A DNA stretch of 64,000 nt from Octopus vulgaris (Eukaryota). The notes under the pieces are model-generated. The model searched no databases. It had not been told where the DNA came from and saw only the letters and a list, made by a program, of their open reading frames with translations. Positions 38,590 to 63,790 of the stretch are shown in pieces; the stretch's first letter is position 1; each line of letters opens with the position of its first letter. Position numbers and translations under genes: made by a program. The stretch spans positions 20,398,001-20,462,000 of the forward strand of contig OX597822.1 in NCBI GenBank assembly GCA_951406725.2, given 5' to 3'.

Positions 38590-38945
38590 ATAAATATAAG
38601 GGTAGCAAAAAATTCGAGAAAAAATGCTCCGCTACCAGCGGTCTAGTGAGAAAGAAAATATAGTCAAAGACTATATAATATACATTCAACAATATAAGAA
38701 ATGGCCATATAGGACATTCGACTCACTAGAAAGAGCAGCCAACCTCAAACCGCTAAATAGTTGTAATTCTGAAATAGAAAGAGAAATAAAAACGTTTACC
38801 CCTTTCATCTCTGGACTATGCATAATTTCGGCAAACTTAGGCAAATGAATTAATTAAATTAACTTCATTTATATCTGGCGTGCCTCGTCAGCAGAGAGCC
38901 TAGGATGAGTATATGTCCACGAGGCTATGGTGAAATTTAGCTGTT
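38590..38945 (-). mobile_element. Hammerhead-bearing non-coding element, related to 39350-39665 and 63192-63790
   Basis: Shared colinear blocks: ggtaaacgtttt, gcggtttgag, ggctgctctttctag, tatatagtctttgactat, tagaccgctgg. Confidence 0.78.
38808..38897 (-). ncRNA. Type I hammerhead ribozyme, canonical core, extended stem II
   Basis: tctctg-CTGACGA-ggca...(aaatgaa/ttcattt)...tgcc-GAAA-ttatgcatag-TC-cagaga; near-palindromic stem III; GUC triplet. Confidence 0.88.
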
Positions 38946-39009
38946 GTCTTCGTCTGCCGATAAAGGCATTTTTTCAAAATACGCCAGCCAAACTTGTACT
39001 GTTTGTTAG

Positions 39010-39310
39010 TCGTAATACACCCGCTGTTTTTGTCCTGTTTTTACCATTATTGTTTTTTGTATTTTATATTCGTGTGGCATCGTCCGTTTTTCTGTCCCGG
39101 TTTCGTATACATTCGATCCTTCTTCCAAGAAATCTAATGCTCGTAGATTAGTTTTTCCTTGGGGATGGCCGGATCGGACCGATCTCAAGATTAATCATCC
39201 GAAATTGGTAGGATGATCCGGTTCTTGACTGAAGATTGAAGGCTTCGAATGTCCCGTCCGTGTTTTTTGTATCGTCTTCTAAATGTTTTACGTTCTTGTC
39301 CCAGTTAGTA
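39010..39310. repeat. Dispersed non-coding repeat, copy 2
   Basis: Homologous to 32790-33100. Confidence 0.8.
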
Positions 39311-39443
39311 TTTTCTACATATAAATAATGTATATATATATATATATAAGTTTGGCGCGAATGCGTTGGTCTTGAAAATTTTAAGACAGATATTCCTGAG
39401 GCATTGATACAGTCGCCTCGTGTATATTCGTCTCTCCCAGGTT

Positions 39444-39544
39444 TCTTTTACTGATGAAGTGTGACCTATGGTAGACTAGCTTAATTTAATTTAATTAAGC
39501 TGGTCTATCATTAAAAACACAGAAACGATGCATCGTATAAAAGA
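39444..39544 (+). ncRNA. Type I hammerhead ribozyme, canonical core, extended stem II
   Basis: tctttta-CTGATGA-agtgt-gacct-[~19-bp hairpin]-taaaa-acaca-GAAA-cgatgcatcg-TA-taaaaga; 7-bp stem I; 12-nt palindrome ACGATGCATCGT; GUA at 39535-39537. Confidence 0.9.
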
Positions 39545-61789: not shown

Positions 61790-61945
61790 AAATGGTTAGC
61801 ATGACGGACAAAAAGCTTAGCGGTATTTTCTCCGTTGTGGTGTCTAATTCCGTTGAGGTGGAATTTGTCTTTCATCCTTTTAGAGTCGATACAATAAATA
61901 CCAGTTGAGCACGGGAGCGATGTAATCGACCTATTCTTTCCCGGC
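61790..61945 (+). mobile_element. tRNA-derived SINE (family D), degenerate
   Basis: gttagcatgacggacaaaaagcttagcggtattt...ctttcatcctttt...ataccagttgagcac. Confidence 0.65.
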
Positions 61946-62219
61946 GCGTGAAGCTCTCTCAGATTGCGCCAGCAAGTTAGTCCATCGGAAGTTGTCGGGT
62001 GCAATCATCAACAACCTGGGTGGGTAGCTCTGGAAAGGGCTATTACAGTAAAGGCATTAGAGTTTAGTAAAGAATAGCGTTAGAGGAATCTAGAATAGAG
62101 AGGGAAATAGATAGGAAGCTAGAAGAGGCATTAGAAAAGGCATCGTGACCAACATGCTGGCGGCAAGACTGGCTCTTGATCAATTCCTCGATTCCAAGCA
62201 CAAAAGCTACGTTGTCAAA

Positions 62220-62740
62220 GCTAGAGCGCATGCGTTAAGACACTAGGAAATAAAAGCCGTTCGATGGTCCCGGATGGCGAAGGTGCACCGAGGAAACAAA
62301 GCCACAATTCGGTGTTTGACGGGCTGGAGTAGGCGCATGCTACTCGTATCCAAGCAGATGTGTGCGGAATTTCAGCGGCACTATGCCAAACATACGGAGT
62401 GTACGGTGAATCAGAGACAGGATGGATTTCACTTCCAAATCTCGACGGCATGTCACACCTTTCGGCTAGGAACGGGTCGAGGTAGGTAGTGCGTATATCG
62501 CTTCTGTCATCTATTATCGCCTGACCGTCGGCCCTTGACCTGCTTCGTGGATCTTCAAGTTGGAGCGCCTGCTCTCCCACTTTCTGTGGAAGGACGTAAT
62601 CCTTTCGTCAGACGATCCATCTGCTGCCAGCAGATACCGAGGCTACCGAGTGGAGGACTGGACGTGCTAAGACTGCGACATATTCAGTGTTTCCTTGACA
62701 GCGAGCAAGTGTGGTCGCCGTTTGTCAGACAAAATTTTCC
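62220..62740 (+). pseudogene. L1/Tx1-like ORF2 fragment
   Basis: SVIYYRLTV...FKLERLLSHFLWKG/RNPFVRRSICCQ...SGGLDV, a post-RT L1/Tx1 region. GC-rich and frameshifted. Confidence 0.65.
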
Positions 62741-63191
62741 GTAGCTCGTTTCAATAACGGACCAACAATCTTGGATCAATCGACTTACCCGCTCTTCTGT
62801 ATTTGCTAGCCTTGTGCCAAAATTTGAAGCTATGATTACTATTATCATCGTTATAAAACATTGCAACTGAAAGAAATATTTTACATTTTAGATTTTATTT
62901 CACACAGAGACACTTATTGAATTTTTTTGAAATGCCTGCTCAACAACTTCGGTTATTAAAATATTTTCATTCTATTCCACTACGAAATGCTTATGTAAAG
63001 AAATGGCGTCTTCTTTCCTTGGATCCAGCCCTCAGAAACACTGCAGTAAATAAAGTAAATAAAAACAACTGCTAAATAAAACAAAGCAAACAGCAAAAAA
63101 CTGCTAAACGAAACAAAACGAATATATATATATATATATATATATATATATATATAAATAATATATATAAAATTATCAATATATATATATA

Positions 63192-63790
63192 TTGACTATT
63201 TTTTTTTTGCACGTTAGACCACTGGAAATGTAAATTTTGATTGAATGTTTTAATTTTAATTAAATTCCATTTCCCTTTGACATGATTAAATACTGTAAGT
63301 TTTTGGATAATTTTCGGTTAAAAGTTGGCGGCTTTTCATCGTAGCCAACGAAGGACTGCGTCTGCGCAGTAAAATTTGAAAAGTTAGTTCGTATAAACAC
63401 GAGACAAGTAACCTTGTTTGTCTTGTGTTGGATATGTTTAGCCCTAGGTTTGACCTTGCTGAAGAATATCAGACCTTGTGAGTTCTCCTTGACTCGCTAA
63501 AAGATGATCAGAAACCAATTGGTCCAAGGAACTAGATAGTAAATGTTTTTCATTTCCAAATTTATTCCTGTCGAATTTTATCCGTTATTTTTGTGGTTTA
63601 CAGAACCTAGCTGTTCTTTCTAGCGTGCTGAATTCCCTATAAGTGGATTCTTTATGTGTTTAAATATACACTATATCGTATGACTAATATATAGTCTTCT
63701 TGACTAATTTTTTTTGCACGTTAAACCACTGGAAATGTAAATTTTGATTGAATGTTTTAATTTTAATTAAATTCCATTTCCCTTTGACAT
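63192..63790 (+). mobile_element. Hammerhead-bearing element: 507-bp unit plus ~91-bp terminal direct repeat, between TA-rich tracts
   Basis: 63192-63283 repeats at 63700-63790 (offset 507). One HHR lies inside and no ORF is present. Confidence 0.88.
63454..63529 (+). ncRNA. Type I hammerhead ribozyme, canonical core, extended stem II
   Basis: ccttg-CTGAAGA-atatca-gacct-[gtgagt/actcgc]-taaaa-gatgatca-GAAA-ccaattgg-TC-caagg; palindromic ACCAATTGGT. Stem I extends past a TGA bulge (ctaggtt/aactag). Confidence 0.9.

Follow-up and report, generated by a model that had tools for sequence, protein, structure and literature searches.

The window considered here, 64,000 nucleotides of the Octopus vulgaris genome (assembly GCA_951406725.2, contig OX597822.1, positions 20,398,001 to 20,462,000, forward strand), contains three related repeats, designated copies A, B and C, in each of which three short helices surround a sequence resembling the catalytic core of the hammerhead ribozyme. 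The helices differ from copy to copy and yet all pair, and an initial annotation of this DNA regarded this as complete covariation of the three stems and as the result of long-term selection on ribozyme structure in a diversified superfamily. The question raised by the locus is whether such covariation extends beyond the three copies and what kind of selection it reflects. The analysis showed that the motifs are not due to chance and were under past selection as the ribozyme of a mobile element. The three repeats are very probably dispersed copies of one non-coding superfamily, with a type I hammerhead in each unit, which is likely to have spread as a passenger of Penelope-like elements.

A hammerhead descriptor applied to the window retrieved five motifs, namely those of A, B and C and an unrelated inverted pair at 172-233 and 459-520. 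In 200 local dinucleotide shuffles of the window the mean was 0.04 motifs and the maximum one; with a strict form of the descriptor no motif was found in any of the 200. Motifs A, B and C all show the type I order of stem I, CUGANGA, stem II, GAAA, stem III, UH and stem I, with an open-ended stem I, and thus have by sequence the three helices and the ordered CUGANGA, GAAA and NUH elements of a type I hammerhead. The annotated stems and flanks were found in place: stem I is tctctg/cagaga, tctttta/taaaaga and ccttg/caagg, and stem II ggca/tgcc, gtgt/acac and atca/tgat in A, B and C, respectively. The stem III sequences are ttatgcatag, cgatgcatcg and ccaattgg; position 1 of this stem is a U-G pair in window copy A, and the palindrome is perfect in 30 of the 33 copies of subfamily A. 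Homology of the flanks was confirmed for A and B (77% identity over 149 nt, E 7e-21) and for A and C (70% over 70 nt, E 1e-4); compared pairwise, the flanks of B and C showed no significant similarity. One profile, built from family members that possibly included the window copies, matched all three with E <= 5e-81. The positions of the motifs and of the other features discussed below are collected in Table 1.

Table 1. Positions of the repeats, ribozyme motifs, predicted sites and coding elements (window coordinates unless a locus is given)
Feature	Position	Strand	Description
Copy A	38590..38934	-	Subfamily A unit, 5'-truncated; long 3' end into (TA)n; 5' end abuts repeat J head to head
Motif A	38808..38897	-	Type I hammerhead, core CUGACGA...GAAA, GUC site; stem II region 55 nt
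Motif A, predicted cut	between 38814 and 38813	-	
Predicted pseudoknot A	38877..38900	-	GGC 38900-38898 with GCC 38879-38877 (stem II internal loop)
Family J, 3' part	38941..39330	+	Unrelated 830-bp tandem repeat, head to head with copy A, (TA)n end
Copy B	39350..39665	+	Subfamily B unit, 5'-truncated; short 3' end; (TA)n on both sides
Motif B	39444..39544	+	Type I hammerhead, core CUGAUGA...GAAA, GUA site; A.A at stem II base
Motif B, stem II region	within 39444..39544	+	64 nt including 18-bp distal hairpin
Motif B, predicted cut	between 39537 and 39538	+	
Predicted pseudoknot B	39439..39467	+	AGGUU 39439-39443 with GACCU 39463-39467
Copy C	63192..63790	+	Whole 508-bp unit and about 90 bp of the next (partial tandem); (TA)n on both sides
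Motif C	63454..63529	+	Type I hammerhead, core CUGAAGA...GAAA, GUC site; stem II region 45 nt
Motif C, stem II base	within 63454..63529	+	A.A and U.C
Motif C, predicted cut	between 63524 and 63525	+	
Predicted pseudoknot C	63446..63476	+	AGGUU 63446-63450 with GACCU 63472-63476; competing local hairpin with 63453-63456
Hydra-type family	L230, L240 (G000:C1:119513000-119522999; 145803500-145809500)		Many copies with 899-aa frames, 3.6-kb tandems
Neptune-type GIY-YIG end	28484-29146; L121	-	Very abundant element

The covariation was evaluated on 148 parsed copies, from which nine (core-less, deleted in stem II or mis-parsed) were dropped. The remaining 139 were divided by eye into 13 subfamilies, among them A, A2, B, B2a, B2b, C, C2, F, G, H and I, on a tree of the downstream flank alone. 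Since an alignment by sequence only misplaces stems II and III of C and I, the pairs were anchored on the core. The commonest pair of each subfamily was found to be valid in 75 of 78 cells of stem I, 55 of 65 of stem II and 38 of 39 of stem III; when strands were swapped between subfamilies of different pair type, pairing fell to 198/394, 149/532 and 33/150. Strict Watson-Crick covariation was present in 8 of the 14 predicted pairs variable on both sides, compared with 18 of 4,081 other column pairs on the same tree. The binomial probability of this test is only indicative because the columns are not independent, and some of the null matches are real hairpins of the flank. A null that also accepted G-U pairs (9/14 against 382/8,162) was too permissive and was replaced by the strict version. 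Pairs II.4 and III.3 occur in four pair types each. Tool-based pair counts, which cover the A-B side only, gave for 12 copies 97% paired positions and 8 of 14 pairs changed on both sides; none of 500 shuffles reached this score, and partners slid out of register were paired in 25-46% of cases.

The covariation proposed from three copies is thus borne out across the 139 copies and 13 subfamilies. It is strong but not complete, since pairs I.2 and III.4 are invariant, and stem II, although its named strands pair in all three window copies, differs in register, starting with A.A in B and with A.A followed by U.C in C. The compensatory pattern is already known in kind, genomic hammerhead families rich in compensatory changes and with a palindromic stem III having been reported (PMC4209133; here and below, published sources are cited from the parts of them available).

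The place where selection acted is indicated by the distribution of the changes. Within subfamilies, departures from the commonest letter affect 117 of 3,472 stem cells (3.4%) and 523 of 13,640 flank cells (3.8%), and 104 of the stem departures break a pair and 53 keep it. The compensatory changes are located between subfamilies, as is expected for selection on the masters of a mobile element. The most likely reading is selection on transposing master copies followed by neutral decay after insertion, rather than a function for the host. The long-term selection and the diversification of the superfamily inferred by the initial annotation therefore apply to the history of the family; for the three window copies themselves selection was not confirmed, inserted copies decaying at about the rate of their flanks.

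Several core variants, which may lower activity, weigh against the interpretation preferred here. The change U4C is fixed in subfamilies G, H, B2a and B2b (all 15 copies), C3U is found in 6 of 7 copies of I, and pair 10.1-11.1 is A.A in I, C2, C and B. U4C is tolerable in a natural hammerhead. Pair 10.1-11.1 is G-C in window copy A and in the commonest form of 8 of the 13 subfamilies, and A.A in window copies B and C; mismatches at this position occur in published hammerheads (PMC3088659; PMC8557442 File S2). The low variation of the core (10/744) is not evidence, because the parse demanded a near-intact core.

The members share an unusual stem II, which is predicted to comprise, within a total of 42-73 nt, a helix of 4-5 bp, an internal loop and, distally, a hairpin of 7-18 bp, and lacks a terminal loop 2 at its usual place. 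The internal loop probably pairs with the GG-containing strand just 5' of stem I, in a pseudoknot replacing the contact between loop 1 and loop 2. The aggt/aggc sequence preceding the core, which had been taken for plain flank, is present as described but forms one strand of this predicted fourth pairing. The flank and its loop complement are AGGU/ACCU in B, C and C2, GGC/GCC in A, and UGGC/GCCA in A2, F and G. The GG and CC are kept in 128 of the 139 copies, and the next pair is C-G in 68 of these, U-A in 51, U-G in five and mismatched in four. The change from C-G to U-A occurred twice on the tree, in two lineages and each time on both sides; one further copy has GGUG/CACC, and the subfamilies provide a series of intermediates (UGGC/GCCA, UGGC/GCCU, UGGU/ACCU and AGGU/ACCU). 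The tool count at the pseudoknot, on 12 rows of which three were out of register, gave 81% paired. Pseudoknots between stem I and stem II are known stabilisers of hammerheads (PMC3088659; PMC10187678).

Three observations lower the confidence in this pairing. The outer pairs are often mismatched, 79 of the 128 copies being paired at one end, and in C a local hairpin competes with the pseudoknot. In a targeted test on 11 new copies with an ACC loop, of which nine were scorable, the flank was GGU in three and GGC in six, compared with GGC in all seven scorable copies with a GCC loop (Fisher p 0.21). The test gave the pairing no clear support, and it is weak because the site picked lies in a CpG and is probably decaying after insertion.

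The same long arm most likely explains why the motifs escape standard models, as 45-64 nt separate the core halves in the window copies. A search of the window against Rfam gave no hammerhead match at the gathering score. Over the three copies, at E <= 10, there were 7 and 3 matches and none to a hammerhead family, and no hammerhead was found among the 150 weak matches listed of 278. In the literature accessible to us, largely without subscription papers, neither this family nor a long stem II with an internal-loop pseudoknot was found described. The long branched stem II with its predicted pseudoknot is new, and the class of element to which it belongs is of a known kind.

The abundance of the superfamily was estimated in the 2.8-Gb, microsatellite-rich assembly. 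First-look searches gave at least 1,399 candidate matches for B, at least 2,456 for A and at least 1,670 for C (40 scored per family), and the three-block flank pattern of the initial annotation had 695 exact matches in the genome compared with none for the reversed control. A single profile match in 359,931 bases not picked for the family leads to a rough estimate of the order of ten thousand copies. The units are non-coding and 469-509 bp long, A, B and C representing three subfamilies of one superfamily. They occur in simple tandem arrays, with seven B units at 469-473 bp in locus L125, A units at 469-470 bp and C units at 508-509 bp; successive head-to-tail units, of B in L125 and of A in L126, each contain a complete type I hammerhead. 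The longest stop-free frame in the B array is 55 amino acids, the GC content of the units is 34% and 36%, and as circles the units are predicted to be well paired (z -7.5 and -5.8 compared with 40 doublet shuffles).

Most copies are dispersed, truncated, inverted and set in (TA)n. Among 206 distinct 5' edges, 130 lie at an inverted copy of the family, 32 at a TA run, 41 at other DNA and three at other elements. At the 3' side, 116 of the 139 copies extend to a TA run lying no more than 420 nt from the cut site, the ends falling mostly in two clusters about 100 nt apart. The copies thus carry the marks of non-autonomous Penelope-like insertion, namely 5' truncation, partial tandems, an inverted 5' copy, a tail at one end and a microsatellite target; Penelope-like insertions have been described as forming partial tandems and inverted copies with 5' truncation, with a one-ended tail and (TA)n as target (PMC8557442). 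The identity among six young B copies, located on five contigs, is 97-100%, which indicates that the B family moved recently. Sequencing runs labelled as four organisms contain 31-76% of the words of the young B unit, so that the family is probably shared with related species. Contigs from three runs, whose RNA nature is a guess, cover most of the unit at low depth and without a common start or end, which speaks neither for nor against expression; the sequences on record that hold the family are contigs, none of them deposited as RNA.

As non-coding passengers the repeats would require a driver, for which a Hydra-type Penelope-like family is the best candidate, plausible though falling somewhat short of probable. 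In this young family the 899-amino-acid frames bear the DKT, CxxC and CxH marks of the Hydra clade; its copies target (TA)n and show two 3' ends. At 600 nt beyond the open reading frame (ORF) lies a hammerhead whose stem III is palindromic and whose stem II comprises about 55 nt. A Pfam search of the family gave no match at E 0.1. The superfamily profile did not match the one Hydra-type 3' region compared, so that, without sequence homology, the family is a candidate by architecture only. An abundant family beside the window (18,762 candidates, an 850-amino-acid frame, a (TA)n end), which we take from its motifs to be of the Neptune type, was rejected as driver, as no match was found among 34 loci and its small motif is different. 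No autonomous element with a homologous end was found in the Hydra-type 3' region and the Neptune-type loci compared, and no informative fusion of the superfamily with a coding element was found, the candidate fusions at L027/L197, L160/L284 and L227 proving to be neighbours only.

The features described can be combined in a replication cycle of the type proposed for non-LTR (long terminal repeat) retrozymes, in which an array is cut, circularised and reverse transcribed (PMC7229834; preprint 10.64898/2026.07.22.740005). A tandem array would be transcribed, and neighbouring ribozymes would, on balance, join through their palindromic stem III to a double hammerhead, which would cut the RNA to unit length. 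The unit RNA would probably be circularised, and a Penelope-like reverse transcriptase (RT)/GIY-YIG protein could copy it for more than one round into (TA)n, leaving partial tandems and inverted 5' pieces. If only masters that still cut leave offspring, the compensation between subfamilies and the neutral decay within them would both be explained. Read through its loop, the commonest stem III sequence is perfectly palindromic in 12 of the 13 subfamilies, and the calculated energy of the stem is 0 to -1 kcal/mol as a hairpin and -11 to -19 kcal/mol as a self-duplex of perfect palindromes. This difference favours the double-hammerhead mode, which has been described for such repeats (PMC4209133; review PMC6765202). 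Against this interpretation stand the predictions that the hammerhead fold is never the minimum, lying 1.3-8.6 kcal/mol above it with an ensemble share of at most 0.04 in 16 copies, and that window copies A and C fold at the level of shuffled sequences (z -0.8 and -0.17); moreover, only one of nine predicted retrozyme dimers was cleaved in vitro in the preprint 10.64898/2026.07.22.740005.

The occurrence of an intact core and cleavage triplet in all three window copies could suggest ribozymes domesticated by the host and selected at their present loci. This is extremely unlikely, as thousands of such copies are dispersed through the genome, A and B have lost their 5' parts and sit in microsatellite tracts, the copies decay at about the flank rate, and window copies A and C each have a weaker pair than most of their own subfamily. 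The pairing might instead have been kept at the level of DNA, by template switching or by conversion between inverted copies, and not by selection on an RNA catalyst. Such processes can perfect short-range inverted repeats, of which stem III and the AT-rich distal hairpin are examples, and the failure of the hammerhead fold to appear as predicted minimum is in line with them. They hardly account for stem I and stem II, whose arms are 60-90 nt and 40-70 nt apart and which flank an intact catalytic core with repeated double changes in both, nor for the spacing to CUGANGA, GAAA and UH, which is kept in all 13 subfamilies; a DNA-level origin is accordingly very improbable.

A further alternative regards the repeats not as elements of their own but as remnants of an autonomous Penelope-like family, of which only the 3' terminal repeats (pLTRs) would have survived heavy 5' truncation. 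The insertion anatomy is the same as that of autonomous elements, hammerheads lie in pLTRs (PMC4209133), and retrozymes are derived from pLTRs in the preprint 10.64898/2026.07.22.740005. The units, however, close on themselves in arrays of up to seven without coding DNA. Among the fetched loci, a small sample compared with the Neptune-type and two Hydra-type proteins, no copy ran upstream into a coding region of the same strand, the one candidate being an insertion into an old, broken element. We consider this alternative unlikely, though less so than the two preceding ones, and retain the view of a non-coding superfamily mobilised by Penelope-like proteins.

As far as can be read from its sequence, the superfamily works like a non-LTR retrozyme and displays the features of that class accessible to such analysis. 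Animal non-LTR retrozymes (PMC7229834; 10.64898/2026.07.22.740005) are likewise short, non-coding, low-GC tandems with one type I hammerhead per unit, occur as monomers, dimers and multimers, fold as well-paired circles and share the genome with Penelope-like elements. The unit of 469-509 bp exceeds the 170-400 nt of PMC7229834 and lies inside the 51-972 bp of 10.64898/2026.07.22.740005. The octopus repeats differ from them in the stem II region of 42-73 nt with internal loop and distal hairpin and in being mostly dispersed, truncated and inverted in (TA)n; their circles are predicted folds only.

With the pLTR hammerheads of the Hydra clade (PMC4209133; PMC8557442 File S2) they share the type I topology, the palindromic stem III and a base of stem II that is not Watson-Crick paired (U.U in many of the Hydra entries listed, A.A here). 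Loop 2 is 3-10 nt in the listed Hydra hammerheads, in contrast to the long branched arm found here; two plant PLE-X entries of the same file, marked as deviating, have a loop 2 of 29-35 nt. Penelope-like pLTR elements (PMC8557442) resemble the repeats in their (TA)n targets, partial tandems, inverted 5'-truncated copies and one-end tail, the tail being about 100 nt here and 30-40 bp in those elements. The superfamily is distinguished from them by the lack of an ORF, and it showed no homology in sequence to those autonomous families with which it was compared. Pseudoknotted hammerheads (PMC3088659; type I examples in PMC10187678) show a comparable contact, in which the stem I side is base-paired with loop II instead of making the non-canonical loop-loop contact; it is present in about 40% of the representatives in PMC3088659. 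In the octopus repeats the stem I side would pair with an internal loop within the long stem II, by 3-5 bp that are predicted from covariation only.

Other elements in the window and at further loci deserve mention. Family J, which abuts copy A (also at L258 and L259), consists of 830-bp tandem units with at least 2,306 candidates and (TA)n ends, and has retained CUGAAGA, immediately preceded by a 6-bp stem that closes a 32-nt loop; by eye a standard hammerhead could not be drawn, and it is possibly another ribozyme variant. The A-J head-to-head junction, although a single one, suggests a shared integration machinery for the two families. In the superfamily, a hairpin located about 25 nt ahead of the short 3' end (e.g. 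window 39634-39655, plus strand) is conserved, varies in a paired way between subfamilies and is a possible signal for the retrotransposon protein. The 3' region of the Neptune-type family contains, by eye, a minimal hammerhead-like motif with a U3-A8 core variant. Upstream of the GIY-YIG fragment, at 29201-29130 (minus strand), a degenerate hammerhead-like stretch with a CUGAUGG core and a long stem II region can be drawn, likewise by eye. Old, broken RT and GIY-YIG fragments of other Penelope-like families are present at 20150-21185 (plus) and 43200-44632 (minus).

The inverted pair in window positions 1-700 represents another repeat family, which has a type I hammerhead of its own, at 172-233 on the minus and 459-520 on the plus strand, with a stem II region of 31 nt, A.A at its base, the palindrome CGUACG and a (TA)n end; relatives about 83% identical are in tandem in L050. 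More unrelated hammerhead families, with stem II regions of 29-58 nt and a palindromic stem III, were seen in the flanks of L058, L016, L051, L090, L104, L106, L110, L117, L120 and L236, from which it appears that a long stem II is common in this genome.

As a class the repeats are ordinary, Penelope-linked hammerhead repeats having been described in many animals. Since current models miss these ribozymes altogether, genomic counts of hammerheads are too low wherever stem II is long. It is tempting to speculate, though we hold it for rather doubtful, that the motifs represent a distinct hammerhead subclass with a long branched stem II pseudoknotted to stem I through its internal loop, carried by Hydra-type Penelope-like elements and their passengers in a number of copies of the order of ten thousand in this genome and invisible to Rfam and the usual descriptors. 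If so, some of the unexplained 'half-core' motifs of other Penelope-like elements may belong to it; in Naiads such motifs, spaced by 35-50 nt, were left without explanation (PMC8557442). The subfamilies, at least 13 in number, represent successive steps of compensatory and core change, which can be assayed one after another; were the subclass real, this ladder, together with the fixed U4C and C3U changes, would make the fitness path of a natural ribozyme directly testable. The young, near-identical arrays occur alongside a Hydra-type element that is intact, likewise young and equipped with a similar ribozyme, and provide a workable system in which to study the role of the ribozyme in Penelope-like transposition.

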